Part shown: in pieces, positions 8,147 through 62,393 of the stretch | Position numbering within the stretch: the stretch's first letter is position 1 | How the letters are laid out: every line of letters starts with the position of its first letter | From: Patescibacteria group bacterium | Lineage (GTDB): Bacteria > Patescibacteriota > Patescibacteriia > UBA2591 > JABMQE01 | Assembly (NCBI GenBank): GCA_018896645.1 | Contig: JAHIMF010000041.1 | Location: forward strand, 1,980 to 65,979 | DNA: 64,000 bases | Direction of reading: 5' to 3' | Translations under genes and position numbers: made by a program | The notes under the pieces: model-generated | Database searches by the model: none | Seen by the model: the letters and a program-made list of their open reading frames with translations, nothing else | What the model was told of the DNA's origin: nothing

Positions 8147-8147
8147 T

Positions 8148-10767: not shown

Positions 10768-10786
10768 CTTTTAATAATAAAAAATT

Positions 10787-11470
10787 ATGCTAGACAACTT
10801 GTTTGGATCGGGAGGAGCAACAACTTTATCCGTTGGAACAATTATTGTTAACATCACACTCACTTTTTTATTGACGTTTATTATCGCCCTGGTTTATAGA
10901 AAGACCCACAAAGGATTATCATATTCCCAATCATTTGTGTTTACTTTGGTGCTTTTGGGGGTATTAATTTGTGTAGTGATGATGGTAATTGGCAGCAGTG
11001 TAGCTCGGGCCTTTGGAGCCCTGGGCGCATTTTCTTTAATTCGTTTTAGAACGGCAGTTAAAGACACCAAGGATACGGCTTTTGTGTTTTTTGCGGTAGC
11101 TATCGGAATGGCGATTGGAACTAATAATTATCATATTGCCATAATTGGCGTGATAATTATTTCTTTTATCATATTAATTTTGTCCCGTATAAATTTTGGC
11201 TCAATCAGGAAATATGATTACATTCTAACTTTTATGAGCGATAGCGATAAGGTCGCTGATGGGGCCACAAAACCAATTTTTAGCAAGTATCTGAAAACAA
11301 GCAATCTTTTGAATGTCTCGGCAAAGGAACATGGCAAGATTTTGGAAATGACTTTTAATGTTAAATTTTTTAGCGAAGACGACAGGGACAACCTTCTTAA
11401 AGAACTCAATGCGATTGAAGGCGTGAGCGAGGTAAATTTAATTAGCGCTAAGAATGACATTGAGTATTGA
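10787..11470 (+). CDS. DUF4956-like membrane protein
   Basis: 227 aa ORF. Three or four N-terminal TM helices plus a C-terminal soluble domain. Position immediately after the VTC gene matches the conserved CotH/VTC/DUF4956 arrangement. Confidence 0.45.
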   Translation: MLDNLFGSGGATTLSVGTIIVNITLTFLLTFIIALVYRKTHKGLSYSQSFVFTLVLLGVLICVVMMVIGSSVARAFGALGAFSLIRFRTAVKDTKDTAFVFFAVAIGMAIGTNNYHIAIIGVIIISFIILILSRINFGSIRKYDYILTFMSDSDKVADGATKPIFSKYLKTSNLLNVSAKEHGKILEMTFNVKFFSEDDRDNLLKELNAIEGVSEVNLISAKNDIEY

Positions 11471-46344: not shown

Positions 46345-46390
46345 TTGAATAATTAAGTAACTAACTAATCGAGTAATTAGGTAATTATTT

Positions 46391-47098
46391 ATGTCAAAAC
46401 CAAAGATATACCCATCGGTTGTTACTTGGGGAGCGGATTGGAGACAGCAATTAAGAGATGTTAAAAAATTGAAATTAAGGGAGGCGACTGTTTTTTTGAC
46501 TGGAATTGACAAAGATGCACATCAAGAATTCTATAGATTTTTAAAAAATAGCGGGATTAAAAAAATACCTCATATTCATTTGCGGCATGATTTTGATGAG
46601 GACGAAATTAAAGACTTGACTAAAGAATATGGCGTAGATTATTTTACGATTCATTTTAAAACAGTTGAGCATTATTTGAATTGGAATAAAAGCTTGAAGG
46701 ATAAAATGTGTGTTGAATATAATGCTGATGAATGGGAAGGAGTAAAAATTAACGATTTTGAATTTATAAAAGAGATTGCCGGGGTTTGTGTTGATATTGG
46801 GCACTATGCCGCTGAAAATTTGTTGAATCGGTTTAATACCATCGAATTGTTTAAAAAAGTGATTGACACTTATCCCGTTGTAATAAATCATCTAAATGGC
46901 AAATATTTTGTTAAAAACAAAGATGGATGCGATGAAATAAAGCGAGGACATTTAGTGGTTGACATAAAAAAAGATTTTGAATATTTGGATGATGTGCCTA
47001 GAAAATTATTTACTAAAAATGTTTATCTTGAATTAAGGAATACGATACCGGAACAGATTGAGATAAGGGATTATTTGTATGGGAAATATTTTAAATAA
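46391..47098 (+). CDS. hypothetical protein between rfbB and the epimerase/reductase
   Basis: 235 aa ORF with no recognisable motif. Sits within the rhamnose gene set. Confidence 0.3.
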   Translation: MSKPKIYPSVVTWGADWRQQLRDVKKLKLREATVFLTGIDKDAHQEFYRFLKNSGIKKIPHIHLRHDFDEDEIKDLTKEYGVDYFTIHFKTVEHYLNWNKSLKDKMCVEYNADEWEGVKINDFEFIKEIAGVCVDIGHYAAENLLNRFNTIELFKKVIDTYPVVINHLNGKYFVKNKDGCDEIKRGHLVVDIKKDFEYLDDVPRKLFTKNVYLELRNTIPEQIEIRDYLYGKYFK

Positions 47099-47204
47099 AA
47101 ATTTCTACCCGACTTTAGTCGAGGGTTCGCGAAGCATTAGCTTCAGACGAAGGCAACTAAAGTTGTCCGACCCTGACCTAAAGGTCGGTAGAAAGTGAAA
47201 AACC

Positions 47205-48023
47205 ATGAAATACCTAATTTTCGGCAATGGCTATCTTGGCCAACAATTTCATAAATATTTTAAAGGCTCGGTGATGAGTGAGGTTTTTGTTAAGAAAGAG
47301 GAAGATGCTTTGCGTGAGATTGAGAAACATGAGCCGGAATGGGTGCTAAATTGCGCTGGGATAACTGGCCGGCCTAATATTGATTGGTGCGAAGATAATA
47401 AACAGGAGACATTTGAGGGCAATGTTTTATTACCCTTGATGATTGCTAAAGCTTGCAAAAAAGTTGGGGTTAAGATGTTGCATTTGGGCTCGGGCTGCGT
47501 ATATTCCGGCGATAATAATAGGAAGGGCTGGAGCGAAAAAGACGCGCCAAATTTTAGCGGCAGTTTTTATTCTAAAACCAAGGCCTTAAGCGAGGATATG
47601 TTAAAAGATTATAATGTTTTGCAATTGCGTTTGCGGATGCCAATTGATAATGATATTTCCAGTGAAAGAAACTTCATTAAAAAAATTACTGGTTATAAAA
47701 AAGTGATTGATATAAAAAATTCCATGACTATTGTTGATGATTTACTGCATGTTGCTGACACTTTGATGTCAAGAAATAAAACCGGAATTTATAATATGGT
47801 TAATCCCGGACCGATGAGCCATAGAGAAATTCTTGATTTGTATAAAGAGATGGTTGACTCAAAGTTTAATTACGATATTATTTCAGTTGATGAGTTGCAT
47901 AAAACGACTAAGGCGGAGAGGAGTAATTGTGTTTTAAATATGGAGAAATTAACGAAAGAAGTGGAGTTAAAGCCGTTGAAAGAGCGTTTGACTGAAATCT
48001 TTCAGAGAACACAGGAAAAGTAA
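47205..48023 (+). CDS. NRS/ER-type bifunctional NDP-4-keto-6-deoxyglucose 3,5-epimerase/4-reductase (eukaryote/giant-virus-like rhamnose synthase C-terminal-domain homolog)
   Basis: 272 aa ORF. 'NCAGITGRPNIDWCEDNKQETFEGNV', 'GSGCVYSGD', 'PNFSGSFYSKTKALSEDML...LQLRLRMPI', 'RNFIKKITGYKKVIDIKNSMTIVDDLL' and 'NPGPMSHREILDLYK' are collinear with Arabidopsis NRS/ER blocks (GRPNVDWCE, GSFYSKTKAMVEELL, LRVRMPI, RNFITKI..Y.KVVDIPNSMT, NPGVVSHNEILEMYK). Confidence 0.65.
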   Translation: MKYLIFGNGYLGQQFHKYFKGSVMSEVFVKKEEDALREIEKHEPEWVLNCAGITGRPNIDWCEDNKQETFEGNVLLPLMIAKACKKVGVKMLHLGSGCVYSGDNNRKGWSEKDAPNFSGSFYSKTKALSEDMLKDYNVLQLRLRMPIDNDISSERNFIKKITGYKKVIDIKNSMTIVDDLLHVADTLMSRNKTGIYNMVNPGPMSHREILDLYKEMVDSKFNYDIISVDELHKTTKAERSNCVLNMEKLTKEVELKPLKERLTEIFQRTQEK

Positions 48024-48108
48024 CTTATAGTAATAAGCTCGCTCACTGCGGTTCGCTTCGCGTAATACAGTTGTAACTCAATAGTCACTCATTGTAATAT
48101 TTTAAATT
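48021..48108. repeat. truncated copy of MITE family D (left TIR plus internal segment; right TIR absent)
   Basis: TAACTTATAGTAATAAGCTCG at 48021-48041 is identical to the TIR at 34901. Its first TAA is the stop codon of the upstream CDS. The following 'GCTCGC..TTCGCGTAATACAGTTGTAACTCA' parallels the interior and ends of the 34901 copy. Confidence 0.45.
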
Positions 48109-48157
48109 TAATCTGCCTTACAGCTTATAGCTTTAAGGCTTTACAGCTCAAAAATTT

Positions 48158-48880
<723 letters not shown>

Positions 48881-48957
48881 TTTAAGCATTGAACCATTCG
48901 CACGCCTGCCCGCCTCTGGAGGGAATGGTTCCAAGATTGCAACTGTTTAAAAAGAAA

Positions 48958-48986
48958 AAACCACTCCGGTAAACCGTGAGTGGTTG
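48958..48986 (-). terminator. candidate rho-independent terminator for the minus-strand gene ending at 49142
   Basis: Hairpin CCACTCCGGTAAACCGTGAGTGG preceded on the plus strand by AAAAAGAAAAAA, which is a U-tract on the minus-strand transcript. Confidence 0.35.
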
Positions 48987-49141
48987 TAGATTTTATGATT
49001 GGTATCCTACGATTGATTTTGGAATCTCGATTATGCCGCTTTGATGGCCTTGGTTAGTTTTTCAACTTCTCACGTAATCAAAATTACCAGAATAGTTAGG
49101 ATGATAAGCTATTTAAGCAGCGGTTCCTCCCATCTTTGTTT

Positions 49142-49861
49142 TTATTCTTCCATTCTGCGCAGACACTCCCAATATAACAGTTCGCAATTACGGCAATCTA
49201 CACAAACTGAGCTCCAGGGCGTGCTGCACATGCGGACACCTCTACCCTTATAGCGTTTCAGTATTTCCAGTAAGACTTCGGTTTTGATGCAGTAATAATC
49301 ATTAAGAATACTTTTCCGCCATTCGTAGTCTTCTGACATAACCACATTTGCCTGATTATAATAACGCATAAATGTCATAACAACCGGTACTCCTTGAGCC
49401 AGGTAATACTCAACTAGTGAATCCTGAACTCCCAGGCCCCAGCTATTTGTTCTGATGCGCACAAACATTACATTCTTTGGGCACTCAACGAACAGGGACT
49501 CTCTGCCATTACAAGTAAAGACTACTGGTGCCGGAAAGTCAAAACGAGGATGCGAGGTGTTGAAGAAACGGTGTTCATACTGGTTAGTGGATTCAATAAC
49601 ATATTCTCGTTGAATATTGCTATCATGACCACTATTAATACGAACAATTTTCCCTGCCGCTTCTTGGGGAGTAGGAAACAATGGCTTGTCTAGTGTCCGA
49701 TAGAATCTCCCACCATTATAGAAGCACTCGGCACATCCCATGGGACATTCTCCGGTCTGGGGGATACAGTCAATCAAATTAGTGTTAGCCAGCTTGGGGT
49801 TTCTGTCCATAATCTTCTCCTTTGAGCACAATTGTTTCAGGATATTTCGGAAGAGGTTCAT
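49142..49861 (-). CDS. Cys-rich hypothetical protein with N-terminal CX3CX2C motif, in a GC-rich islet
   Basis: 239 aa ORF. 'GECPMGCAECFYNGG' near the N-terminus and 'CSTPWSSVCVDCRNCELLYWEC' at the C-terminus. Local GC is ~48% against a ~33% background. Confidence 0.4.
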   Translation of the reverse strand: MNLFRNILKQLCSKEKIMDRNPKLANTNLIDCIPQTGECPMGCAECFYNGGRFYRTLDKPLFPTPQEAAGKIVRINSGHDSNIQREYVIESTNQYEHRFFNTSHPRFDFPAPVVFTCNGRESLFVECPKNVMFVRIRTNSWGLGVQDSLVEYYLAQGVPVVMTFMRYYNQANVVMSEDYEWRKSILNDYYCIKTEVLLEILKRYKGRGVRMCSTPWSSVCVDCRNCELLYWECLRRMEE

Positions 49862-50065
49862 TAGGAATAAAGCCCCGCTTCAAAAGTGCTTCCCCAACAG
49901 CCCAGAGCCGAACATTTAGGAACCGTTCTCCCATTGAGGGGTCATTATTCTGCTCGGTGCGCCCCTTCCTTTTTGAACGAGCCATAGTTTCTCCTCCTTT
50001 TTTGAGTGGTTTTTGTAGGTTTATTTCGTTGGCTTTATATTATTCTTTTATAATCTTTTTGTCAA

Positions 50066-50920
50066 ATGGATATTCTTCATCTCAAAAAAATTCTCAAATT
50101 AACTAAAGCTGGGTTGATTTTGTTTTTTGTTTTTCTCTTTTGCTATTTATTTTATAAAGATTTTGTACCTTCTGGAAAATTAGTTATCATTAATAATTTT
50201 CAAAATAAATCGCAATTGATTTCTGATTTATATCCTGATGTGCGGGTGGAAAAAATTAAGCAAGACGAGCAGGGAAATTTTTATCAAACAATGTTTATTG
50301 ATCCAGTATATTTTAAGATAAACCCGCCGCGGGCGTTTAGGAAAGCGACGATAAAAATTGTTTATAAAAATAAAGAGCAATCATTGTTTCAAATTGGTTT
50401 AAAGCTTGGGGAAGAAGGTTGGGTATTTGATTTTAAGACTTTGGAATTTCAAAAGATCGATGATTTATCGTGGTATAAATTGCAAAAAGATAATCTTATC
50501 CTTTTACAAAAATCCAGGCGATACCGAGAGATCGACGATTTTTTACTGGAGCCGCCCACCCAGGGCCGGATTGCTCAATTTGGCTATACTTTAGAGCTTG
50601 CCAACCCGGCTGATTATTTATTAACAGCCCTTAACACAAAAACTGATCTTAATCATATCAGTTATATCATTGCTCGATACATCCAACCAGAGGTTGACGA
50701 CAGTGATATCAAAACAGCCCAGGCTGAGTTTTTTATTGATCGTTCTTTTCTTGTTGATGGGAAATTAGTATTTATTTTTTCTGCTCCGGAAATGGATGTT
50801 AATAAGCGCGAAATAGACATTTACGAAATTCAAGTTGCTCTAGAACGGGAACCCCTTAAATTGGGCAACACTATCAGACAAGCTGGGGGATATTTGAAGG
50901 ATATCATAGTAAATTTTTAA
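50066..50920 (+). CDS. hypothetical membrane-anchored protein
   Basis: 284 aa ORF with an N-terminal TM helix and no recognisable motif. Confidence 0.3.
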   Translation: MDILHLKKILKLTKAGLILFFVFLFCYLFYKDFVPSGKLVIINNFQNKSQLISDLYPDVRVEKIKQDEQGNFYQTMFIDPVYFKINPPRAFRKATIKIVYKNKEQSLFQIGLKLGEEGWVFDFKTLEFQKIDDLSWYKLQKDNLILLQKSRRYREIDDFLLEPPTQGRIAQFGYTLELANPADYLLTALNTKTDLNHISYIIARYIQPEVDDSDIKTAQAEFFIDRSFLVDGKLVFIFSAPEMDVNKREIDIYEIQVALEREPLKLGNTIRQAGGYLKDIIVNF

Positions 50921-51256
50921 TAGGTTTTCATTGTTACATTGTTTTATTGCTTATTTTTCTTGTTAACAATGTAGCAATGAAGCAATGTAACAATGGGCGC
51001 CATTGACTAGCCATTAACTGAGTAACCTGAAAAGCCATAATTATTCAACAATCAAAACTAAACATCTTTCTTTGGTTTTCGGCTAAATTGTTTAAGCAGT
51101 GTTTTGTGATTTGTTTGGCTGCGCTTTTAATATTTCTTATTATTGAAGACGCCAAATGCGGCTTTGTATTGAATTATTTTGATCTGGGCAAGCTTTTTGT
51201 TTTATGTATTTTTTTGGGTATTGGCGCCTTGTTGACGAGTAAAAAGGGCGAATTTC

Positions 51257-52843
51257 TTAGTGAATTGTGATTTTGTAGATTCCGTTTTTGTCGCCTATTT
51301 CAGCGTGAAGATAGATAAAATTTTTGTCCTTGTTGGGAAACAAATTGTAAATTTTTTTCACCTCAAGTAAATTAACAATGTTGCGTCGATTTCGGCTATC
51401 AAGCTCCAATGCATAGATTATATCTTTGCCGGCATTTTTCAGGGAGAGCAGTAAATAGTTTTGTTCTTTTGTGGATATAATTTTTTTGATTTCCGAGCTA
51501 AACCGGCTAAGAATGTATCTGGTGTCTTGCAAGGGTTTGCCATTGGAGTCGTAATTTTTTAAATCAGTTTGCCAAATTTCAAAATCATTATAATAAATCA
51601 AAGTTTGTGAAGCGGGTAAATAAAGGACATCTTTAGCTTTTGTTTCATTAAGAATAACTTCTTTAGTTTTGGTATTGATAAGCCAGATTTTTTGTTCGTG
51701 CCCTCTTTGGAAAAAGTCACCAGCAAGGGCTGATGATCCCCGCCCGGGAAAATCATCAGCCCTTGCTGGTGATTGAACTAATAATAATTCATCATCAATT
51801 TTAGAAAGAGAATACAGCGTACCTTGGTTTTGGGAGGAACCAAGCGGTAGCTCCAAGAGACAAGTCTTGGAAATCGCTTCAATTCTTAGGCTGCTGCCGT
51901 CTGTAGTCAAACCTACATAATTTAGGCACCAGTTCTCTTGCCATTTTTTAAGATAGAAAATATTCCAATCCTTGGCTATTAAAAAATCATCAAGACTTTG
52001 AGTTTTTATTTGCAGAAAAGGTTTTATTTTTTTTGTGAAAAGATTTATTTGATAGGTAGTGTTTTTTCTGGCGCCGTAAATAAGATTAGGATTTTGATGG
52101 TCCCACTTTAGATTGTCTAGCGGCGTATAGTTTTGGAAAGAATTTACTGATGTATTTTCTCCGGTTTCTGCATTGATGATTATATAATTTTTATATTCTG
52201 GTTTTTGTTCAGTAATTAATATTTTTTGGCTGGTATTATTCCATTTGATGTCAATAATTGAATCATGAGTTTCAAACAGGGTAGTCGTTTGTTCGGTTTT
52301 GATATCCAGTAGTTTTAAGGTGTTATTTAATAAGAGAGCCGTTTTTTGCTGATCCGGGGCAATCTGCACCTGGCTGATGTTTCCTTGAGTGAGCGCTTGA
52401 ATTTCCGGCTGCAAACGGAAGAGCAGCACTTGGTCAGCAAAAGTTGCTTCATTGCTGGTGATAGTTAATCTCTTGACCCAGGGGTGATAATCAGGTTTTG
52501 TCAGTTTAATAAGATATTCATTAGGAATAAGATTATTAATAATCAAAGGTGTTTTTTGAATATTTTTTTGCTCTTGGCTTTGGGTGGCAGCGATGATTCT
52601 AAATAAAGTCCTCCAGGCGCTGCCTGAAAATAGATTTTGACGAGGTTGGTTGTCAATATAGACAGAAGCAGCTTTTGGGTAAGTTTCAAGAATTAAACTG
52701 CCGGTTTTAACAATTTCGTGTTTTTTAAAATCATAACGAAAACCACTGCTAGCGAGAATTAGCAAAGGCGCAGTGATTAGGAAAAGTATGATGATTGAGA
52801 GGTAAATTAAGCGGCGGAGAGTGATGTTCATATTGATTGACAA
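51257..52843 (-). CDS. membrane-anchored PEGA-domain protein with C-terminal beta-rich domain
   Basis: 528 aa ORF. N-terminal TM helix, then 'LILETYPKAASVYIDNQP', a PEGA-like motif. Confidence 0.4.
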   Translation of the reverse strand: MSINMNITLRRLIYLSIIILFLITAPLLILASSGFRYDFKKHEIVKTGSLILETYPKAASVYIDNQPRQNLFSGSAWRTLFRIIAATQSQEQKNIQKTPLIINNLIPNEYLIKLTKPDYHPWVKRLTITSNEATFADQVLLFRLQPEIQALTQGNISQVQIAPDQQKTALLLNNTLKLLDIKTEQTTTLFETHDSIIDIKWNNTSQKILITEQKPEYKNYIIINAETGENTSVNSFQNYTPLDNLKWDHQNPNLIYGARKNTTYQINLFTKKIKPFLQIKTQSLDDFLIAKDWNIFYLKKWQENWCLNYVGLTTDGSSLRIEAISKTCLLELPLGSSQNQGTLYSLSKIDDELLLVQSPARADDFPGRGSSALAGDFFQRGHEQKIWLINTKTKEVILNETKAKDVLYLPASQTLIYYNDFEIWQTDLKNYDSNGKPLQDTRYILSRFSSEIKKIISTKEQNYLLLSLKNAGKDIIYALELDSRNRRNIVNLLEVKKIYNLFPNKDKNFIYLHAEIGDKNGIYKITIH

Positions 52844-53052
52844 AAGGAGGTTTTGGGGGTAGAGTAAAGATGATGGATGTGAAGTAAGATTTTTCGTACA
52901 TTGTATATAATGTTCAATTGTCCGATTGCTCGATTGATAAATTGTTTAGAATGATTTTGTAACAATCGAACAATTGAACAATGAAACAATGAGCAAGGGG
53001 CATATTTAAACAACAGAAATCAAAATAATAGAAAGTTTTACGCAACCCCACC

Positions 53053-54306
53053 ATGTCTAAATTTATCATCACCGGCGGTAAAAAGCTTTCCGGTGAAATC
53101 CCAGTTAATGGCGCAAAAAATGCAGCTTTGAAAATTATTCCAGCTGCCTTGCTTTTTGATGAAAAGATTACTATTAGCAATGTGCCTAAAATTGAAGATG
53201 TGACTCGGCTGTTAGAAATTGTAAAAGATTTGGGGGTGGAAGTCAAGCAAAAAGGCAACACGGTTAAAATTCAAGCGGGTGATATTAAATCAGGTGAACT
53301 TTCCCGCGATTTGGTGCCAAAATTGCGAGCTTCTAATATGCTGATTGGTCCCCTGCTTTTGCGGGTAGGCGAGGTCGTGATTCCTCATGCCGGGGGTTGC
53401 GCTATTAGCCGGCGCCCGATTGATGTTTGGGTAAATCTTTTTAAACAACTTGGCGCAGAGGTGGAACAAGGCCCCAAATTATATACTTTCAAAGCTCGAA
53501 AAATGCGCGGCGCCAAATTGGTGTTTCCTTTTATTTCGGTAACTGCTACTGAAGCCTTGATGATGACAGCCGTATTGTTGTCTGGAAAAACAACTATTGT
53601 TAATGCAGCCATGGAGCCAGAAATCCCGGCCTTGGCTGATTATCTTAACGAATGCGGCGCAAAGATAAAAGGCGCCGGTACTAGCGAGATTGTGATCGAG
53701 GGCGTTAAACAGCTTAAAGCCCGACCTTTCACCGTGATACCTGACAGAATTGAAGCTGGCAGTTTTGCGTGTCTTGGAGCGGCTACTCGAAGTAGAATAA
53801 AGATCACTCATTGTAATCCGAATCACCTTGAGGTGCCTTTGGCGATTTTAGAGCAGATGGGCGTTAATTTTGTTGTTGGCAAGGACTACATTCAAATTAA
53901 AGAAGTTAGCGACCTAAAAGCAACAAAAATTAAAACCCATGAATATCCAGGTTTTCCTACTGATTTGCAATCTCCGTTTACTACTTTATTGACCCAAGCC
54001 AAGGGGGACAGCTTAGTTCATGAAACGATTTTTGAAGGTCGGCTTTTTTATACTGATATTTTAAATCAGATGGGAGCCGAGATTATTATGTGTGATCCTC
54101 ATCGGGTAATTGTCCAGGGGCCAACAAAACTCTATGGCACTAAAGTTGCCAGCCCGGATATCCGGGCCGGTATTGCTTTAATCATTGCTGGCTTGATTGC
54201 CGAAGGCGAAACCGAGATAGATAATATTTATCAGATTGATCGGGGATATGAAGATATTGAAGGGCGGCTGAAAAAGCTGGGGGCGGGGATAAAGCGATTG
54301 GAGTGA
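53053..54306 (+). CDS. murA: UDP-N-acetylglucosamine 1-carboxyvinyltransferase
   Basis: 417 aa ORF. 'MSKFIITGGKKLSGEIPVNGAKNAALKIIPAALL' with the catalytic Cys in 'HAGGCAISRRPID'. Confidence 0.9.
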   Translation: MSKFIITGGKKLSGEIPVNGAKNAALKIIPAALLFDEKITISNVPKIEDVTRLLEIVKDLGVEVKQKGNTVKIQAGDIKSGELSRDLVPKLRASNMLIGPLLLRVGEVVIPHAGGCAISRRPIDVWVNLFKQLGAEVEQGPKLYTFKARKMRGAKLVFPFISVTATEALMMTAVLLSGKTTIVNAAMEPEIPALADYLNECGAKIKGAGTSEIVIEGVKQLKARPFTVIPDRIEAGSFACLGAATRSRIKITHCNPNHLEVPLAILEQMGVNFVVGKDYIQIKEVSDLKATKIKTHEYPGFPTDLQSPFTTLLTQAKGDSLVHETIFEGRLFYTDILNQMGAEIIMCDPHRVIVQGPTKLYGTKVASPDIRAGIALIIAGLIAEGETEIDNIYQIDRGYEDIEGRLKKLGAGIKRLE

Positions 54307-54413
54307 GATTTCTATTATTAGAAAACTGATATAGCGCGAGCGGTAGAAGTTGGTGATTAAGATTCGCGGCAAGAAAGTGATTATTGACGATTGGAAAAAA
54401 TAAATTTAAAAAG

Positions 54414-54447
54414 AAAAGCCGGGAGCTTGTAAGCCCTCGGCTTTTTG
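54414..54447. terminator. bidirectional rho-independent terminator between murA (+) and the convergent GC-rich islet genes (-)
   Basis: AAAAGCCGGGAGCTTGTAAGCCCTCGGCTTTTTG: a GC-rich hairpin flanked by an A-run and a T-run. Confidence 0.5.
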
Positions 54448-54476
54448 ATTATCCGTCATCCGGCGGAGAATCTATT

Positions 54477-55340
54477 TTATTTCACCAGCACCATTCTCCT
54501 CGTCTCTTGATAATTTCCTACGCAGAGGCGATAGAGATAGGCGCCAGTTCCAAATCCGCTTCCATCCCAAGCCACTTCGTACTGGCCGGCTCCCTGACGA
54601 CCCGCCACCAACGTTGCCACTCGCTGACCAATGGCGTCATAAATGGTCAACATGACATCACTGGCTTCTGGCAGATTGTAGGTGATGGTCGTAGCCAGGT
54701 TGAAGGGGTTGGGAAAGTTTTGTTGCAGAGCAATCTTGAAAGCAGTTGTTGCTTTCGCTTTTTTTACCACCTCCTTGCTTGCTTTTCCACCATTAATATA
54801 TATTACGGTATAAACAATGCCAATATTGTTTTTATATAGAACCGATGCTAAAACCGGGGTCCCGCTCTGTATATTAAAAAACAGAAACGAGTGAATGTAG
54901 CTTTCCCCATTGGGCGCGAAAACCCTGGCGTTTAACTCTCTTGAGATAAACTGGGCGATATTATTGTCACCACTGCCCGTTGAACAGGCAATAAGAACAA
55001 TATCAGGACTTGGGTTGAGATAAGGACTGATTTTTTCCCAAACATCAGCATCTCCAATCTCTATCCTCCAGGGATTATCCTGACCCGCAACTATTTTGTA
55101 ACTAATACCTTTAGTGTTGCCATGGCCACCGATGACCAATAAATCTATCATACCAGCGGGTTTATAGCCATAATTCTCTCCCATGCTTATGATATTAGCT
55201 ACAAATTTATTCCTACAATCTGCTTCAACGATTCGCAGGTCAAATCGCACATCCAGGAATCTCTGGATTATTTCAGGGTTTTGGTAAAACGCCCGGCTGT
55301 AATCCGTTTTAGGCAAAGCAATCACCGCCAGGGGCCGCAT
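54477..55340 (-). CDS. clan-CD (gingipain/caspase-like) cysteine-peptidase-like domain fused to a type IX secretion system C-terminal sorting domain; no signal peptide, possibly a fragment or pseudogene
   Basis: 287 aa ORF. 'DLLVIGGHGN' and 'IVLIACSTGSG' give a His/Cys dyad arrangement. The C-terminal 'LQQNFPNPFNLATTITYNLPEASDVMLTIYDAIGQRVATLV...GQYEVAWDGSG...GAYLYRLCVGNYQETRRMVLVK' is a canonical T9SS CTD. Local GC is ~50%. Confidence 0.6.
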   Translation of the reverse strand: MRPLAVIALPKTDYSRAFYQNPEIIQRFLDVRFDLRIVEADCRNKFVANIISMGENYGYKPAGMIDLLVIGGHGNTKGISYKIVAGQDNPWRIEIGDADVWEKISPYLNPSPDIVLIACSTGSGDNNIAQFISRELNARVFAPNGESYIHSFLFFNIQSGTPVLASVLYKNNIGIVYTVIYINGGKASKEVVKKAKATTAFKIALQQNFPNPFNLATTITYNLPEASDVMLTIYDAIGQRVATLVAGRQGAGQYEVAWDGSGFGTGAYLYRLCVGNYQETRRMVLVK

Positions 55341-55388
55341 GTGTGAGCCAGGCTCATCAGTAAAGGCTTGCCTCTGATTCCTATGCTC

Positions 55389-56453
55389 CTATAGATGAGA
55401 AAGAACCTTTACGGTGTACCTGCCAAAAAAAGAGATATTATATTGTTTGAATATATATCGGGCTGGCTCTGATGTCCCATACTTTTCATGCAATTGTTTT
55501 AGCCGATATAAATCCTCACCAATATTATTATCTCCCAACCCTTTTAAAGGATTGCTTTTCTTTAATTCCTTGAAAAAATCACCGTCCAAGCCAGTATAAT
55601 ACTTCACTGGCTTTTCAAATTCTTGCTCATCTAAAACCACATCAAAGCCTATACTGCGTAGACCGTCGCCCGCTCTTTCTCGCCCAGATTCGGGCGCCAT
55701 GGCTCTGGGGAAAAAGATTGCTTGAGTCAAGACCTTAATTATACGAGAGAGTAAGGCCTTGTTTCCTTCGCCAAGTCCATTGCCTATTTTACCCAAACTC
55801 GCAGCTGCTGTATCTTGGGCACGCCATTCCTTATCATTTAAAAAGATTCTGATTAACAGCTCTGCGTGTTGGGAATTACCTATTTCGCCCGATGCCCAGA
55901 CAGCCGCCCATCGAAGATAGTCATTATCGCTTTTTAGGGCCAGGGTTAAAAGATTTTCAGCTTCTGGACTAACTTCACCTATTTTGCCCAAAGCATACAT
56001 TGACTGAATGAGCAGGTCTACCAGCCAATAATCTTTATCCCAACCATTTTGAAAGCCCAAATCTATAATTTCTATCAGGAACGGCGCAATTCTTGAAACA
56101 CCAATTTCACCCAACCAATATATGGCTTCCTTTTTAATGAGTTTTGATTGGTCAAGATCATTTTTTACTACAAAAATCAACGCATCTATTATTTTGTCTA
56201 ATGCCTTTGTTTCGATGATAGTCAGGTCGTCTTTGTTCACCAAAACAACAGCTATCCCACCTAAAATTTTTACTGCGTTTCTTCGGACAAAGGGGTCTCT
56301 ATGGTTTTTTAATCCTTTTATCAACGGGTCCACGGTTCTGGGATCTTTTATCTTAATTAAATTATCAGTTGCATCGTTTATGATGGATAGCTTGGCGCCA
56401 TAAAAAAGAGCAATCAAGTTTCTCGCCGTCTCCATATCTTGTCTAACAGCCAC
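55389..56453 (-). CDS. HEAT-repeat (PBS-lyase-like) protein in GC-rich islet
   Basis: 354 aa ORF. Repeated 'D..VR..A..ALG.IG' units: 'DPFVRRNAVKILGGI', 'NDYLRWAAVWASGEIG' and 'EWRAQDTAAASLGKIG'. Confidence 0.6.
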   Translation of the reverse strand: MAVRQDMETARNLIALFYGAKLSIINDATDNLIKIKDPRTVDPLIKGLKNHRDPFVRRNAVKILGGIAVVLVNKDDLTIIETKALDKIIDALIFVVKNDLDQSKLIKKEAIYWLGEIGVSRIAPFLIEIIDLGFQNGWDKDYWLVDLLIQSMYALGKIGEVSPEAENLLTLALKSDNDYLRWAAVWASGEIGNSQHAELLIRIFLNDKEWRAQDTAAASLGKIGNGLGEGNKALLSRIIKVLTQAIFFPRAMAPESGRERAGDGLRSIGFDVVLDEQEFEKPVKYYTGLDGDFFKELKKSNPLKGLGDNNIGEDLYRLKQLHEKYGTSEPARYIFKQYNISFFGRYTVKVLSHL

Positions 56454-56488
56454 GCCTCTTTGTTCCAGCTCTCTTAGGGCGCCAATTA

Positions 56489-57037
56489 TTAGAACCTGGT
56501 AATTACGCTATTCTCTTCTACAATGTGGACAAGGAGGACATTTATTGACCACTCAGTTCCAAATTTACCCAATGCCAGTATAGCTTTTATTCTTTCTTGA
56601 ATACCAGTATGAGGCTGAGGATTAAGCAGTATGGTCCCTATCGGCTTCTCAACATCCCAACCAAAACGAGCTTGAAGAGCCAGGTAGAAGTCAACACAAT
56701 TAAGCATAGTGTCAAACCTTTCTTTGGTTGATTCACCGGCTACTCCTTTCACTAAATGCGGATTATTATCGCCTTCTTCCAAAAACCTATAATATGCTGC
56801 TTTCAATCTATCCTGCTGTGGACCGGGGGCCAGTTGACAAATGCTATTATCGTAGGTCCCCGTGATAATTGCAATGACTACGACTATTACTACTAATAAA
56901 TGCTTTTTCATTGTTCTCTCCTTTCCAAGAGAAAAAGTGACAGAAAAATATTTAACTCCAGCCAAAAAGTTCATTAAAGTGTCCAAATAAGGCCTTTCAT
57001 GCCTTTTGGAAGCAGGTTTAGAGGAATGAATTTTCAA
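56489..57037 (-). CDS. hypothetical secreted/membrane-anchored protein in GC-rich islet
   Basis: 182 aa ORF. The likely true start is the internal 'MKKHLLVVIVVVIAIITG' signal/anchor. Confidence 0.3.
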   Translation of the reverse strand: MKIHSSKPASKRHERPYLDTLMNFLAGVKYFSVTFSLGKERTMKKHLLVVIVVVIAIITGTYDNSICQLAPGPQQDRLKAAYYRFLEEGDNNPHLVKGVAGESTKERFDTMLNCVDFYLALQARFGWDVEKPIGTILLNPQPHTGIQERIKAILALGKFGTEWSINVLLVHIVEENSVITRF

Positions 57038-57360
57038 GGAGCGAATTTATTAAATAAGGATAGTATGGTTTAGAATTTTTGTCAAAGCTTTGCTATAAAA
57101 ATGTTATTGTGGAAATTATGGGATTAGCGACAAGGCAAAGCTTTGTCGCTATATTAAGATTATCCACATTTTGCTAATAAAAAATTTATATGATACAATA
57201 AAACAAGTTAGATTGGTTATGAGTTATCAGCCAGAGGTTGACCTCCCCCAAAGGCGGATGAGCATCTGGTCCAAACCTTTGGCTGGGAAAAGTTAGAAAT
57301 TATCAAGTTAACCTATAACCAGTCTAACTTTTCTAATCAGTTTAACTCGCATCATTTTTT

Positions 57361-58722
57361 ATGAAAAATCTAAAGCCTCAAGAACCTAATTTAGGTAGCT
57401 CTAAAAATCCAACCGTCCCGGCCAATTTTAGAAAAAATATTTTTATTATTTTGATTTTGTTTTTATTGACTGCTTCATTCGGATTTGGCATTTATACCGG
57501 CCAACATTGGGGAGATTTAAACTCTAATGTTAATCAAAACGATAAAGAAGAAACAGCTCTTCAGGAAACTGAAGAAAACCAGCAATACGGCGAGCTTAAA
57601 GATAAAAATGAGATACCAAAATATCTAACCAAGGATGTCAACGCCCAACTTTTTTTAGAGGTTTGGGATATTATTCATAATAAATATGTTGATCCGGTTG
57701 AGGACATCAAATTATTTTATGGCGCTTTGGCCGGAAGCGTGGCGGCGCTTGGCGATCCTTATAGCATGTTTTTAGAGCCTAAAATCACCAGCGATTTTAC
57801 TGAAGAACTACAAGGCAAGTTTGAAGGTATTGGCGCCGAGATTGCCATTAAAGCCGACCGCCTAACAATTGTGGCGCCCCTGCCAGATACCCCGGCCGAA
57901 CAAGCAGGGATTAAAGCTGGCGATAAAGTATATTTGATTGATGACTATGATACTACCGGCATTACTCTGGAAGAGGCGGTAAAAAGAATCCGCGGGCCGC
58001 AGGGAACCCCGGTGGTTTTAACGGTCATGCGCGAAGACAATGGCGATGAGCCTTTAAAAATCGAAATTATCCGGGACGAGATTCATTTTAAAAGTGTTCG
58101 AGGTGAAATGAAGGAAGAGGATATTGGCTATATTAAAATTTCTCATTTTAATGAAGATACCACAGCCAGCTTTGAAGAAGTTCTTGATGAACTTTTAGAC
58201 CAAGGAGCTCAAACGATTATTTTGGATTTACGGAATAATCCCGGGGGCTATTTAAAACGCGCGATTGATATTGCCAGCTTTTGGGTAGATGATGATGTGA
58301 TTGTTATTGAAAAATTTGGTGAAAATTATCCAGATCCATTGCCGATTGATAAAAAACGGGTCCACAAATCAACTTTGCCGGCGATTTTGAAAGGAGTCAA
58401 AACCGTGGTTTTGGTAAACCTGGGTTCGGCCTCGGGCTCGGAGATTGTGGCCGGCGCTTTGCAGGATTACGGTCTGGCTACAATTATTGGTAAAAAGACT
58501 TTTGGTAAAGGCTCGGTTCAAGAGCTAGAAGAGCTCTCTGACGGTTCTTCGGTCAAAATTACCATTGCTAAGTGGCTGACGCCCAAGGGTCGTTGCATAG
58601 CTGATGAGGGGATTGAGCCGGATATTGAGGTAGAGATGACTGGCGAGGATTATAGCAATGATTTAGATCCCCAGTTGGATAAAGCAATTGAGATAATTAA
58701 AGGAGAGGACTTGACGGAATAA
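57361..58722 (+). CDS. carboxyl-terminal processing protease (S41) with PDZ domain
   Basis: 453 aa ORF. N-terminal TM helix; 'GIGAEIAIKADRLTIVAPLPDTPAEQAGIKAGDKV' PDZ domain; 'LVNLGSASGSEIVAGALQD...GKKTFGKGSVQ' S41 Ser/Lys dyad region. Confidence 0.8.
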   Translation: MKNLKPQEPNLGSSKNPTVPANFRKNIFIILILFLLTASFGFGIYTGQHWGDLNSNVNQNDKEETALQETEENQQYGELKDKNEIPKYLTKDVNAQLFLEVWDIIHNKYVDPVEDIKLFYGALAGSVAALGDPYSMFLEPKITSDFTEELQGKFEGIGAEIAIKADRLTIVAPLPDTPAEQAGIKAGDKVYLIDDYDTTGITLEEAVKRIRGPQGTPVVLTVMREDNGDEPLKIEIIRDEIHFKSVRGEMKEEDIGYIKISHFNEDTTASFEEVLDELLDQGAQTIILDLRNNPGGYLKRAIDIASFWVDDDVIVIEKFGENYPDPLPIDKKRVHKSTLPAILKGVKTVVLVNLGSASGSEIVAGALQDYGLATIIGKKTFGKGSVQELEELSDGSSVKITIAKWLTPKGRCIADEGIEPDIEVEMTGEDYSNDLDPQLDKAIEIIKGEDLTE

Positions 58723-58745
58723 TTTTTTAAATAAACAATATAGAT

Positions 58746-59066
58746 ATGGATGAAGACCAGGAAAAATTAAATAAACCCATGACCTTAAAGACACTTGGTG
58801 AATTTTCCGAGCAGGTTTTGTTGCCAGCTGTTGATAGGATGATTGACAAAAAGTTGGACAAAACCAAAGATGAGCTGGAAGAAAAAATGGATCGAGTTAA
58901 GGGTGAAACGTTTGAGAATATGGAGTATAACAAAAAGGAAATCCTTCAGGAGCTAAAGAAAGAAAAAGAAAAAAACGCGCAACATCGAACCATTGCAACT
59001 GATATTTTTGAAAAGCATAATTTGGCTAATCCAGAAGAATTAGAAATTTTGAAAGAATCAGTTTGA
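58746..59066 (+). CDS. hypothetical coiled-coil protein
   Basis: 106 aa ORF, charged and helical, with no recognisable motif. Confidence 0.3.
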   Translation: MDEDQEKLNKPMTLKTLGEFSEQVLLPAVDRMIDKKLDKTKDELEEKMDRVKGETFENMEYNKKEILQELKKEKEKNAQHRTIATDIFEKHNLANPEELEILKESV

Positions 59067-59166
59067 TGGGAAAGAATATGAAAAAAAATCACAACGTTGA
59101 TAAGGTTTCGGTCAAAGACCGGCCAGTCTCTGGCTGGAATAATGTTAATAAGATTAATAAATTGAC

Positions 59167-59610
59167 ATGAAAGTAATACTTTTGAAAAATATTGACAATC
59201 TGGGTAAGAAAGGCGAAGTCAAGGAGGTAGCGAACGGCTTTGCTCGTAATTTTTTATTGCCAAAAAAGATGGCTGTTGCGGCATCTCCTGGAAACTTAAA
59301 AATGGCGCGGGAGATGAAGCAAGGTGAAGAGGAAAAAAGAAAAAAAGGAAAAATTAATTTGCGGGAATTAAAGAAAAAGCTGGCTGGCAAAGAAGTCAGA
59401 ATTAGGGCTAAAGCCAGTAAAGAAGGGCATTTATTTGCCGGTATCGGGGCCGACAAGATAAACGAAGTTTTAGCGGATGCGATGGGCGTCAAAATAAAAC
59501 CTTCAATGATAAAATTAAATAAAAAGATTAAGACATTGGGTGAGCATAGGGTAGAGGTTAAGGTGGGGGATGGAAGAGTAGAGGTGAAAGTGAGAGTAGA
59601 GAAGGAGTAA
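59167..59610 (+). CDS. rplI: 50S ribosomal protein L9
   Basis: 147 aa ORF. 'MKVILLKNIDNLGKKGEVKEVANGFARNFLLPKKMAV' is the classic bL9 N-terminus. Confidence 0.85.
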   Translation: MKVILLKNIDNLGKKGEVKEVANGFARNFLLPKKMAVAASPGNLKMAREMKQGEEEKRKKGKINLRELKKKLAGKEVRIRAKASKEGHLFAGIGADKINEVLADAMGVKIKPSMIKLNKKIKTLGEHRVEVKVGDGRVEVKVRVEKE

Positions 59611-59723
59611 ATTTTTATTTATAACCAATAACAAATCCCAGCCAAGGGCAAAGTTGAGCTTAGCTTAGCTCTGCTGGCCACCTTCTGGGTGATAATTTTA
59701 TAACTCATGACTCTTTTTGACCC

Positions 59724-61442
59724 ATGAAATCTAAATTTACCCTGAACCATTCTTCTAGTTCTTCAAATGTACAGATTAAGAGCGATAGGAATAAAAATTT
59801 TTCAAGAAAATTTAAGTTATCTACAAAAGGTACAGGGTTTATTTTTGTAGTTGGAGGAGTGATGTCAGGCATTGGTAAAGGTACCACCACGGCTTCCATT
59901 GGCAAGATTTTGCAAAGCCGCGGTTTTAAAGTTACGGCGGTAAAAATCGATCCCTATATCAATGTTGACGCCGGCACTATGAATCCAATTGAGCATGGTG
60001 AGGTTTTTGTAACTGATGACGGCGATGAGACGGATCAGGATATTGGTAATTATGAACGATTTTTAGACCAAGATATTACCACTGATAATTATATGACCAC
60101 GGGCCGGGTTTATGAAACCGTGATTCATAAAGAAAGAAATTTGGACTATGGCGGTAAGTGCGTAGAAGTAGTGCCCCATATTCCCGAGGAAGTAATCAGG
60201 CGGATTGAAAAAGTAGCTCGTAGGGGCTACGATTTTGTTTTGATAGAGGTTGGCGGGACAGTAGGGGAATATCAGAATATTTTATTTCTTGAGGCGGCTC
60301 GAATGATGAAAATAAAACACCCTGGAGATGTTTTATTTGTTTTAGTCAGTTATTTACCCATCCCCGCTAAAATAGGCGAGATGAAAACCAAACCAACGCA
60401 GTATGCCGCGCGCACTTTAAATTCAGCCGGGATTCAGCCGGATTTTATTATTTGTCGTTCAGAGAAACCTTTGGACAAGCCACGGAAGCAGAAGATATCT
60501 ATTTTTTGTAATATTCAGCCAGAAGATGTTATTAGCGCTCCAGATGCGGATTCTATTTACGAAATTCCGGTTAATTTTGAGAAAGATAAAATTGGCGAGA
60601 GGATTTTGAACAAATTTGGGCTTAAATGCGGTAAAAAGGATTTAAAGGATTATAAAAAATTAAATCAAACAGTAAAAAGAGTCAAACGCCAGGTAACCAT
60701 TGGAATAATTGGCAAGTATTTTGCCACTGGCAAGTTTGTGCTTTCTGATGCATATATTTCGGTGATTGAAGCCGTTAAGCATGCTTGCTGGGGGCACAAA
60801 CGAAAACCAGAAATTTTATGGTTGAACAGCGAGGAGTATGAGCAAGATAAAAAGAAATTAAATGAACTTAAAAAATTAGACGGAATTATTATTCCTGGTG
60901 GTTTTGGCTCCAGGGGGGTGAAAGGTAAAATTTTGGTTATTCAATATGCGCGAAAGAATAACGTTCCTTATTTAGGACTATGCTATGGCATGCAGTTAGC
61001 CACGGTGGAATTTGCGCGCAATGTTTGCGGTATGCGAGGTGCGCATACTACGGAGATTGAGTCAGATACCAAATATCCGGTGATTCACGTGATGCCAGAC
61101 CAGGAAAAGAAACTTTTGGCTCGTGATTATGGCGGGACCATGAGATTGGGCGCCTGGCCATGCGTTTTAAAAAAAGGCACTAAGAGCTCCAAAGCCTACG
61201 GCCAGCGAAAGATAGAAGAACGGCACCGGCATCGGTATGAGTTAAATAATAAATACAGAGAAAGATTAGAGAAAAAAGGTTTGAATATTGCCGGCACTTC
61301 ACCGGATGGCAAGCTGGTAGAAATCATTGAACTGCCTAAACATAAGTTTTTTGTGGGGGTGCAGTTTCATCCGGAGTTTAAAAGCCGGCCATTGCGTCCG
61401 CACCCGTTGTTTCGGGAATTTGTGAAAGCGGCGATTAGCTGA
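59724..61442 (+). CDS. pyrG: CTP synthase with ~35 aa low-complexity N-terminal extension
   Basis: 572 aa ORF. 'FIFVVGGVMSGIGKG' synthetase P-loop-like motif and 'GLCYGMQ' glutamine-amidotransferase catalytic Cys. No in-frame ATG lies between 59724 and the conserved core. Confidence 0.9.
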   Translation: MKSKFTLNHSSSSSNVQIKSDRNKNFSRKFKLSTKGTGFIFVVGGVMSGIGKGTTTASIGKILQSRGFKVTAVKIDPYINVDAGTMNPIEHGEVFVTDDGDETDQDIGNYERFLDQDITTDNYMTTGRVYETVIHKERNLDYGGKCVEVVPHIPEEVIRRIEKVARRGYDFVLIEVGGTVGEYQNILFLEAARMMKIKHPGDVLFVLVSYLPIPAKIGEMKTKPTQYAARTLNSAGIQPDFIICRSEKPLDKPRKQKISIFCNIQPEDVISAPDADSIYEIPVNFEKDKIGERILNKFGLKCGKKDLKDYKKLNQTVKRVKRQVTIGIIGKYFATGKFVLSDAYISVIEAVKHACWGHKRKPEILWLNSEEYEQDKKKLNELKKLDGIIIPGGFGSRGVKGKILVIQYARKNNVPYLGLCYGMQLATVEFARNVCGMRGAHTTEIESDTKYPVIHVMPDQEKKLLARDYGGTMRLGAWPCVLKKGTKSSKAYGQRKIEERHRHRYELNNKYRERLEKKGLNIAGTSPDGKLVEIIELPKHKFFVGVQFHPEFKSRPLRPHPLFREFVKAAIS

Positions 61443-61482
61443 TTAATTTGCTTTTTCTAATTTTATGTGTTATACTTGAACA

Positions 61483-61779
61483 ATGAGCACTAAAGAAATT
61501 CAGGAAAAAATTATTTCAGAACTCCCCGTTTTAAAGGAAAAATACCAGGTTAAAAAGCTGGGTATTTTTGGTTCAAGGGTTCGGGGAGATGATGAGCCGG
61601 GGTGTGACGGCGATACAGACATTATGGTAGAATTTTATTCTCCACCCGGTTTTTTTGATTTTATTAGGTTAGAAAATTTTTTAGCTAAGACCTTAAACAA
61701 GAAAGTTGATTTGGTGACGAAGAAGGCCTTGAAGCCAGCGATTAAAAAAGGGGTTTTAAAAGAAATGGTTTATGTCTAA
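61483..61779 (+). CDS. MNT-type nucleotidyltransferase (antitoxin of HepT/MNT pair)
   Basis: 98 aa ORF. 'LGIFGSRVRGDDEPGCDGDTDIMVEF' is the GS..RG...D.D minimal nucleotidyltransferase motif. Confidence 0.7.
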   Translation: MSTKEIQEKIISELPVLKEKYQVKKLGIFGSRVRGDDEPGCDGDTDIMVEFYSPPGFFDFIRLENFLAKTLNKKVDLVTKKALKPAIKKGVLKEMVYV

Positions 61780-62094
61780 AAGAGAGGCAAAACTTTATTT
61801 TGACGACATAAAAGATTCTATTAGGAAAATAGAAAGATATACAAGTGGTTTATCCCACAATGAGTTTGTAAATGATGCGATGAGGGTTGATGCGGTGGTG
61901 AGGAATTTGTCTGTTATTGGCGACCAGTGGAAATAAAATCTCAACATCCTCTTATTCCTTGGGAGGAAGTTATTGGAATGAGAAACAAAGTTATTCATGA
62001 GTATTTTGGGGTTGATGAAGATATTCTGTGGAAAACGGTCAAAGAGGATTTGCCAGTTTTCAAAGAACAGATTGATGAACTTTTGGATTTTTAA
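61772..62094 (+). pseudogene. HepT-like (DUF86) toxin gene disrupted by a frameshift
   Basis: Frame 1 from the ATG at 61772 gives 'MSKREAKLYFDDIKDSIRKIERYTSGLSHNEFVNDAMRVDAVVRNLSVIGDQWK*', stopping at 61934-61936. A different frame from ~61924 continues 'PVEIKSQHPLIPWEEVIGMRNKVIHEYFGVDEDILWKTVKEDLPVFKEQIDELLDF*', which is the conserved HepT C-terminal half. The start overlaps the MNT gene by 8 nt. Confidence 0.55.
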
Positions 62095-62152
62095 ATTATT
62101 GCGGCGATTAAATAGTCATAATTCACAAGGCATGTAACAGGAGGGATGAGGG

Positions 62153-62296
62153 ATGGATAATCAGGGGTTTTGGTTTGCGCTGTTTGTTTTTGTGGTTGTA
62201 ATTGCTGGTTTATGGTATTCTGCTACGTTTAGCAGGAAGGTACTTAGTGATTTATGGCATGCTTTAATTGGGATGCCGGAGGAGGATGAGGATTAA
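62153..62296 (+). CDS. candidate small membrane protein (47 aa)
   Basis: ATG preceded by AGGAGGGATGAGGG. Encodes 'MDNQGFWFALFVFVVVIAGLWYSATFSRKVLSDLWHALIGMPEEDED' with one TM helix. Followed by a hairpin plus T7 at ~62313-62350. Confidence 0.25.
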   Translation: MDNQGFWFALFVFVVVIAGLWYSATFSRKVLSDLWHALIGMPEEDED

Positions 62297-62312
62297 TATC
62301 AGGAAATAAAAC

Positions 62313-62350
62313 AAATCCGCCGCTCAAGAGTAGAGAGTGACGGATTTTTT
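62313..62350 (+). terminator. candidate rho-independent terminator after the small ORF
   Basis: AAATCCGCCGCTCAAGAGTAGAGAGTGACGGATTTTTTT: an imperfect stem followed by T7. Confidence 0.35.
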
Positions 62351-62357
62351 TATGTAA

Positions 62358-62393
62358 CACTCCTACATTCCGATATATCGGAATGTAGGAGTG
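62358..62393. repeat. perfect 36-bp palindrome CACTCCTACATTCCGATAT|ATCGGAATGTAGGAGTG
   Basis: Checked base by base. It is not followed by a U-tract on either strand, so a protein-binding site or recombination site is more likely than a terminator. Confidence 0.6.

Follow-up and report, generated by a model that had tools for sequence, protein, structure and literature searches.

Introduction

The described proteins closest to the gene considered here include Tce1 (PA0256) and Tce2, DUF4347-type putative cysteine-protease effectors of the Pseudomonas aeruginosa H3 type VI secretion system (H3-T6SS; PDB 9qpe; PMC13323088). Their His/Cys dyad superposes on that of TcdB, and the toxicity of Tce2 in yeast needs the Cys residue (PMC13323088). 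In this study we analysed a 64-kb stretch of DNA from a Patescibacteria group bacterium (contig JAHIMF010000041.1, positions 1,980 to 65,979), referred to below as the window. Near its end, three consecutive minus-strand open reading frames (ORFs) lie between murA and ctpA: a 287-amino-acid (aa) ORF with a clan-CD peptidase-like domain and a type IX secretion system (T9SS) C-terminal sorting domain (CTD), an ORF made of HEAT repeats, and a third ORF of hypothetical function. We consider it likely that these ORFs constitute one disrupted gene, not three, and most likely a pseudogene in a Parcubacteria genome.

Results

The ORF listing contains the three minus-strand ORFs reported in a preliminary description of this DNA, where that description had placed them. 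The features of the locus are as follows:

54477-56911, minus strand: reconstructed ancestral gene of ~810 codons (signal or anchor, HEAT repeats, clan-CD module, T9SS type-A CTD)
54477-55340, minus strand: 287-aa ORF, comprising a clan-CD-like part and the T9SS CTD
54480-54725, minus strand: T9SS type-A C-terminal sorting domain, residues 206-287 (TIGR04183, motifs, composition)
54786-55340, minus strand: core of the clan-CD peptidase-like domain, with the putative dyad His73 (CAT, 55122-55124) and Cys119 (TGT, 54984-54986)
55341-55388, minus strand: 16 sense codons from the TAG to the ATG of the 287-aa ORF (sequence, alignments)
55389-55391, minus strand: in-frame TAG nonsense codon splitting the peptidase module (sequence reading, alignment of relatives)
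55389-56453, minus strand: HEAT ORF, 354 aa (HEAT_2, 68 bits)
55392-55523, minus strand: tail of the HEAT ORF, forming the conserved helical element at the N-terminus of the peptidase module, ..YNISFFGRYTVKVLSHL (alignment of relatives)
55704-56375, minus strand: HEAT/PBS-lyase-type repeats of the 354-aa ORF (HEAT_2, HEAT_PBS, HEAT)
56489-57037, minus strand: third ORF, 182 aa as listed, likely start at ATG 56911
56492-56507, minus strand: probable frameshift zone (both frames read; no homopolymer)
56858-56911, minus strand: hydrophobic signal or membrane anchor, MKKHLLVVIVVVIAIITG (maximum Kyte-Doolittle 15-mer 3.1; assigned by inspection)

A single frame contains both the HEAT ORF and the 287-aa ORF, and all that stands between them is the TAG and the 16 sense codons. 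The peptidase module opens in the tail of the HEAT ORF (NISFFGRY..VLSHL) and resumes beyond the stop as ..RPLAVIALPKTDYSRAFY.., and the codons that follow the TAG still read as the linker of the family (EHRNQR, versus ENRNER in the relative P0034). Relatives came from an exhaustive HMMER search that used residues 1-210 of the 287-aa ORF as the query and returned 444 cluster representatives, in which the domain usually forms the C-terminal part of proteins of ~400-600 aa. The closest of them, P0034 (575 aa, 46% identity), combines HEAT repeats with this domain, and P0036 carries a lipoprotein signal, a dockerin, HEAT repeats and this domain. The read-through translation aligns unbroken with both proteins, and invariant residues flank the stop on its two sides; in the tail of the HEAT ORF, I494, R499, Y500 and L505 are invariant in alignment A1. 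The position of the stop is spanned in one piece by 131/149 and 142/170 relatives in two alignments, and the FxRY motif has its Arg in 139 and its Tyr in 135 of the 142 non-gap sequences. In the stop column itself, Tyr occurs most often (56 of 120 non-gap residues), and a single substitution converts TAY into TAG. The proposal of the preliminary description that the 287-aa ORF is a fragment or pseudogene is borne out: a premature TAG interrupts the conserved domain where homologues have a sense codon. Because the frame is shared, the TAG is single and the relatives are continuous across the stop, it is near-certain that a nonsense codon has divided one gene into the HEAT ORF and the 287-aa ORF; the HEAT protein, formerly read as a separate neighbour, is the upstream part of the same frame, severed by one TAG. 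The 287-aa piece has neither an export signal nor the conserved element with which its domain opens. A word-indexed homologue search with the 287-aa ORF returned CTD matches only. Reassignment of the stop codon was also considered and was rejected, as TAG, TAA and TGA all end ordinary ORFs of the window (15, 22 and 13 times, respectively; n = 50).

A chimeric assembly had been raised as an explanation of the locus. An independent assembly, that of SRR11548473 in Logan, matches the window from 44477 to 62387 with 0 mismatches over 17,911 bp. At the National Center for Biotechnology Information (NCBI), the 287-aa protein is represented by MBU4332102.1, MBU4512455.1 and MCG2692583.1, from Patescibacteria / Candidatus Parcubacteria, under the label 'T9SS type A sorting domain-containing protein'. 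In all three of these metagenome-assembled genomes (MAGs), on contigs of 90, 55.9 and 48.5 kb, consecutive accessions correspond to murA, the 287-aa ORF, the HEAT ORF, the hypothetical ORF and an S41 peptidase, and the three do not differ in their 287-aa and 354-aa products. By this assembly-level comparison, the lesions are real and not assembly errors, and the agreement between Logan and the three MAGs, which present the same split, makes a chimeric join very unlikely. The three MAGs are near-clonal: a 678-aa protein differs between them by only 0-4 aa.

The hydrophobic segment MKKHLLVVIVVVIAIITG begins at the internal ATG 56911 of the third ORF, with AGGAG located 7 nt upstream. A signal or anchor is found only at the start of this ORF, and it is in the same polypeptide as the CTD only in the reconstructed gene. 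The N-terminus of the 287-aa ORF is not hydrophobic (maximum Kyte-Doolittle 15-mer 0.74), in agreement with the earlier statement that this ORF has no signal peptide; if the junction between the third ORF and the HEAT ORF holds, the 287-aa fragment lacks a signal peptide because the signal or anchor is at the start of the third ORF. No family match was obtained for the third ORF, which is labelled hypothetical protein at NCBI. Its tail, IKAILALGKFG, is a weak HEAT_PBS-like motif (14.6 bits alone, E 0.05) that resembles the motifs IQSMYALGKIG and AIYWLGEIG inside the HEAT ORF; HEAT_PBS scored 28.7 bits, in two stretches, on the whole fused construct, and the repeat spacing of ~31-32 residues appears to be kept across the junction. 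The frame of the third ORF is open to 56489 and that of the HEAT ORF is open from 56507, and, as the frames overlap at 56492-56507, a 1-nt deletion or a 2-nt insertion would join them. A word-indexed search with the fused third ORF and HEAT ORF retrieved only the query itself and a generic HEAT protein. An argument on independent starts from Shine-Dalgarno motifs was dropped because the core motif is too rare in this DNA: it is present at the listed starts of only 4/47 window ORFs.

The 354-aa ORF is a HEAT repeat protein by gathering thresholds, with multiple repeats: HEAT_2 (PF13646) scores 68 bits versus 27.7, HEAT_PBS (PF03130) 41.6 versus 20.9, and HEAT 36.2. For the N-terminal part of the 287-aa ORF, a fold was predicted by AlphaFold2 with an alignment (a single-sequence run gave a predicted local distance difference test score, pLDDT, of 37.5 and was discarded). 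The model has the alpha/beta fold of the caspase-hemoglobinase type with a His/Cys dyad, which bears out the clan-CD call of the preliminary description: H73-G74 follows the strand 65-71 and C119 follows the strand 108-117. Alignment A3 shows no variation at H73 or C119, and in alignment A2 H73 is nearly invariant. Fold comparison gave figures of 13.4 for Tce1 (DUF4347, 9qpe_G), 11.9 for SAVED-CHAT, ~10 for C11 clostripain-like proteins, 9.6-9.7 for gingipains, 9.5 for legumain, ~9 for caspases, 8.6 for the cysteine protease domain (CPD) of MARTX and 8.1 for that of TcdA; caspases and MALT1 were top-ranked by Foldseek. By sequence, no match of the 287-aa ORF to DUF4347 (PF14252) or Peptidase_C80 (PF11713) was obtained in Pfam even at E<=10, and its relatives reach 16-25.6 bits in the DUF4347/C80 test, where the cutoff is 24.6 and P0035 alone passes. 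Single-sequence and profile searches of the PDB sequences were both without a match. On the basis of the model, the module is a divergent, unannotated branch of clan CD that adjoins DUF4347 and C80, and a putative cysteine peptidase. The few named relatives of the peptidase module belong to Micrarchaeia, Nanoarchaeota and Colwellbacteria, i.e., to the candidate phyla radiation (CPR) and DPANN. Within the FxRY-GHG-SCSTG family, an N-terminal hydrophobic signal is present in 7/163 full-length members, and a CTD-like tail is also found on two distant members, P0043 and P0105. Another relative, P0033, is 5,401 aa long and matches residues 42-87 of the query in 23 separate stretches.

The preliminary description had also recognized a canonical T9SS CTD at the end of the 287-aa ORF. 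Residues 209-284 of 287 match TIGR04183 (model positions 2-70 of 72) with 34.8 bits, the cutoff being 23, and the motifs PNPFN, WDGSG, YxYRL and the terminal LxK (..LVK) are kept in relatives, so that this assignment stands. In Pfam, the CTD scores 37.4 with FlgD_ig (cutoff 27) and 26.4 with Por_Secre_tail (PF18962), just below the cutoff of 27. Ten residues (N12, P14, N15, P16, F17, N18, G56, D63, G70 and Y72) are invariant between the CTD and 8 relatives, and the relatives compared for motifs have signal peptides of their own. Six-frame translation of the window contains one CTD. A single-protein scan of 185,579 species genomes, dominated by CTD patterns, gave more than 530 matches, of which the best 80 were considered. 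These come from Balneola, Ignavibacteria, Melioribacteraceae, Bacteroidota, Calditrichota, Zixibacteria, KSB1 and Marinimicrobia, show 35-52% identity and cover the CTD only, and no Patescibacteria are found among them; their taxonomy agrees with the earlier assignment of the CTD to the Fibrobacterota-Chlorobiota-Bacteroidota (FCB) group type. The GTDB representatives matched do not include the species of the window. The best metagenomic relative of the CTD has 58% aa identity and lies on a contig of 59% GC, with 70% DNA identity. A recent transfer of the CTD at the DNA level was rejected, as this 70% is the best DNA identity to the fetched loci; no recent donor has therefore been sampled. General scans of window ORFs (64 kb) identified no T9SS gene (PorK/L/M/N, Sov, PorU/V) and no outer-membrane gene among the ORFs covered, and a literature search gave nothing relevant on T9SS CTDs in Patescibacteria. 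Neither an outer membrane nor a T9SS is known from Patescibacteria.

The locus had been described as an islet of ~50% GC in a contig of ~33% GC. The whole window has a GC content of 37.5% and the segment 54380-57050 one of 41.7%, a value that 4.7% of equal-sized segments match or exceed; GC peaks at 44.1% in the segment starting at 53301, which is mostly the housekeeping gene murA. The tetranucleotide distance between the locus and the window average corresponds to z = 2.1, and the most deviant segments start in murA. These sliding GC and tetranucleotide profiles show no islet, and an island covering the whole region was rejected (z ~2, with a peak centred on murA). The HEAT ORF, which had been called equally GC-rich, has a native-like GC content at third codon positions (GC3) of 0.375, and the composition of the HEAT and peptidase parts is near-native. 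A GC content of 50-52% is reached only by the last ~250 bp of the 287-aa ORF: the CTD codons have a GC content of 52% and a GC3 of 0.566, versus 0.363 +/- 0.066 in 82-codon stretches of the other ORFs, which places them in the top 0.5%. As a whole, the 287-aa ORF has the joint highest GC content of the window ORFs (44.9%) and the second-highest GC3, and its GC3 is patchy (0.28-0.60 per 40 codons). The ORF tied with it for the maximum, also at 44.9%, encodes an S8 subtilase with FG-GAP repeats (32317-34353, plus strand). Opposite the CTD-coding part, a 151-aa ORF (54384-54839, plus strand) runs antisense; rather than a gene, it is most likely a side effect of the locally high GC.

The CTD was probably added by horizontal transfer from an FCB-type source, and the simplest reading is that the gene is a mosaic of a HEAT-peptidase gene of CPR/DPANN type and an acquired FCB-type CTD. 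The patchy GC3 inside the 287-aa ORF makes a transfer of the whole gene conceivable too.

Two further features border the locus:

54414-54445, both strands: bidirectional intrinsic terminator hairpin (z = -3.0 on the minus and -4.9 on the plus strand; U-tracts on both strands)
57057-57085, minus strand: sigma-70-like promoter candidate, TTGACA-17-TATCCT (consensus match only, 10/12 positions)

Bidirectional terminators had been announced on both sides. The first is present, between the convergent murA (plus strand) and the CTD end of the broken gene (minus strand); the second, at ~57.04-57.36 kb, was not upheld, this being the divergent promoter region shared with ctpA, in which the promoter candidate lies upstream of the third ORF. 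The third ORF/ctpA intergenic region also contains a strong stem-loop (57126-57151; z = -5.8 versus shuffles, no U-tract) that may be an operator or leader element; an Rfam scan of the region, this stem-loop included, gave no match.

The rest of the window consists of a surface-glycan biosynthesis region and housekeeping genes. Five B12-binding radical-SAM paralogues (2168-3613, 3717-5231, 13252-14712, 20932-22347 and 22352-23764, all on the plus strand) are distributed across the surface-glycan cluster, which also contains two CotH-like ORFs (5288-9842), one of them with a beta-helix, VTC and DUF4956 (9994-11470), GT4/GT2 transferases, DegT and Wzy_C-TPR. An 837-aa ORF (41024-43537, plus strand), within a stretch of strongly negative AT skew, is without a Pfam match at E<=1e-5. 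The GDP-mannose 4,6-dehydratase/epimerase ORF (44299-46344, plus strand, 681 aa) has a match to Pfam Intein_splicing in the middle of the enzyme, and its counterpart in the MAG with MCG2692... accessions is annotated at 600 aa. Internal substitutions between the near-clonal MAGs were observed in two compared proteins only, the S8 subtilase (1-4 aa) and the dehydratase (one). Just downstream of pyrG, at ~61483-61936 (plus strand), a small nucleotidyltransferase (NTP_transf_2/Polbeta) and a HepT-like ORF form a toxin-antitoxin pair of the MNT/HepT type.

Discussion

In its intact form of ~810 aa, the ancestral protein would have comprised a Sec-type signal or anchor, HEAT repeats, a DUF4347/C80-like clan-CD cysteine-peptidase module and a type-A CTD, the hallmark of the module being a conserved FxRY helix followed by a putative GHG...SCSTG His/Cys dyad. 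Such a product would be exported by Sec and, in a T9SS-bearing cell, could cross the outer membrane by means of its CTD as the clan-CD gingipains do, and the HEAT repeats may have served as a binding or regulatory arm of the His/Cys peptidase. Among the Parcubacteria sampled here, the peptidase module has had one of its Tyr codons changed to TAG, and a 1-nt indel probably detached the signal-bearing 5' end. Since an outer membrane and a T9SS are not known in Patescibacteria, the tag would be without its cognate machinery in this host, a situation consistent with decay. With its module severed before the catalytic core, and probably from its signal, the gene in its present state is most likely non-functional and decaying.

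Several points weigh against this reconstruction. No close intact orthologue was found in the searched collections, where the best relative has 46% identity, nor in the single-protein genome scan, which was dominated by CTD patterns, and we infer the ancestral continuous ORF from the present pieces. No Pfam match and no homologue spans the junction at which the third ORF would meet the HEAT ORF, and the homologue searches found no relative of the mature region of the third ORF; on frame geometry and a weak repeat motif, we lean towards the third ORF having been joined to the HEAT ORF before a 1-nt indel. With GC3 patchy along the 287-aa ORF, a separate origin of the CTD is suggestive only. Finally, as the MAGs represent almost one strain, the persistence of the lesions in them says nothing on selection.

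A gene that is split and yet functional is the alternative that best withstands the data, and we regard it as unlikely. Here, the pieces would be produced separately, by reinitiation at ATG 55340 or by translational coupling, or else a low level of read-through of the TAG and of ribosomal frameshifting would give some full-length protein. The products could be a HEAT stub with the signal, an adaptor made of HEAT repeats and a protease-CTD protein that stays in the cytoplasm. The ORFs are indeed long and otherwise unbroken, the 16 codons beyond the TAG are still coding-like, and the same arrangement is found in all three MAGs, for which NCBI annotates three proteins and not pseudogenes. However, the TAG strips the near-invariant FxRY from the catalytic core and the 287-aa piece would have to act without an export signal. 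ATG 55340 and the HEAT start are not preceded by any Shine-Dalgarno-like motif (rare in the window in any case), neither junction shows an evident slippery or recoding signal and the Rfam scan gave no element, and conservation among MAGs this closely related is uninformative. A variant that we hold to be quite improbable is that the clan-CD family acts in interactions of episymbionts with their hosts or partners and that the CTD was captured for a T9SS-independent use, for instance as what might be an Ig-like domain for surface display, with the split gene still being expressed. A role in defence, suggested by the pairing of a helical repeat with a CHAT-like protease, was rejected, as PADLOC gave only generic HEAT matches.

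We give little credence to the original proposal of a stand-alone 287-aa clan-CD/CTD gene next to a separate HEAT gene, in a GC-rich islet from an FCB-group donor. The CTD is FCB-like and GC-rich, and the high GC and GC3 ranks of the 287-aa ORF would agree with such an origin. Against it, the conserved domain crosses the TAG, the regional GC of 41.7% is equalled by murA while the GC3 of the HEAT ORF is native-like, and the named relatives of the peptidase module are from CPR/DPANN, not FCB.

An assembly or sequencing artefact, either as a chimeric join at the CTD or as wrong bases that create the TAG and the frameshift, retains a very slim chance. MAG contigs in general can be chimeric and GC does jump locally at the CTD, but such a join would need two junctions within ~300 bp, with the native murA following directly; neither lesion is in a homopolymer, the Logan assembly has 0 mismatches, and the three MAGs have identical products and neighbours. 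There is next to no likelihood that the locus encodes a native, working T9SS cargo served by a T9SS elsewhere in the genome, for, although the reconstructed signal and CTD have the layout of a T9SS cargo, the gene is interrupted, the window ORFs that were scanned include no T9SS or outer-membrane gene, the best 80 of more than 530 CTD matches contain no Patescibacteria, and Patescibacteria are not known for either system.

Our preferred reading, that of a single disrupted gene, corrects the public annotation, in which the three NCBI MAGs list the pieces as three independent proteins, and in which a 'T9SS sorting-domain' label in Patescibacteria can be misread as a T9SS cargo or as contamination in a CPR genome. 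In its CTD-coding part, an otherwise native-looking gene, now decaying, seems to have received a small horizontal addition of FCB type. The locus itself is a commonplace broken gene. The wider interest is confined to the clan-CD peptidase family, which is sizeable, unannotated, common to CPR and DPANN and without an adequate Pfam model, and which is worth a family model and biochemical study.

The reconstructed gene can be compared with four kinds of known systems. Tce1 has no significant sequence match with the window protein and lacks both the HEAT repeats and the FxRY element that the window gene possesses; moreover, Tce1 and Tce2 are delivered through Hcp and the T6SS, whereas the reconstructed gene would rely on a Sec signal and a T9SS-type CTD. 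In the C80 CPDs of MARTX RtxA and of Clostridioides difficile TcdA and TcdB, the peptidase is an internal module of a giant toxin, whereas the window module is C-terminal to HEAT repeats, and all Pfam C80 scores obtained here are below the cutoff. The TPR-CHAT protease Csx29 of type III-E CRISPR and SAVED-CHAT likewise combine a helical repeat with a protease, but the window gene has no defence context, with no CRISPR genes and no genes of cyclic-oligonucleotide-based anti-phage signalling systems (CBASS) nearby, and its secretion signals point to an extracellular role. The Porphyromonas gingivalis gingipains RgpB and Kgp (C25), which are the archetypal T9SS cargo, share the signal and CTD layout of the reconstruction. 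They belong to another peptidase family, however, and have a pro-domain and an immunoglobulin superfamily (IgSF) domain and no HEAT repeats; and they are intact, in a T9SS-bearing organism, whereas the window gene is interrupted, in a Parcubacteria genome.

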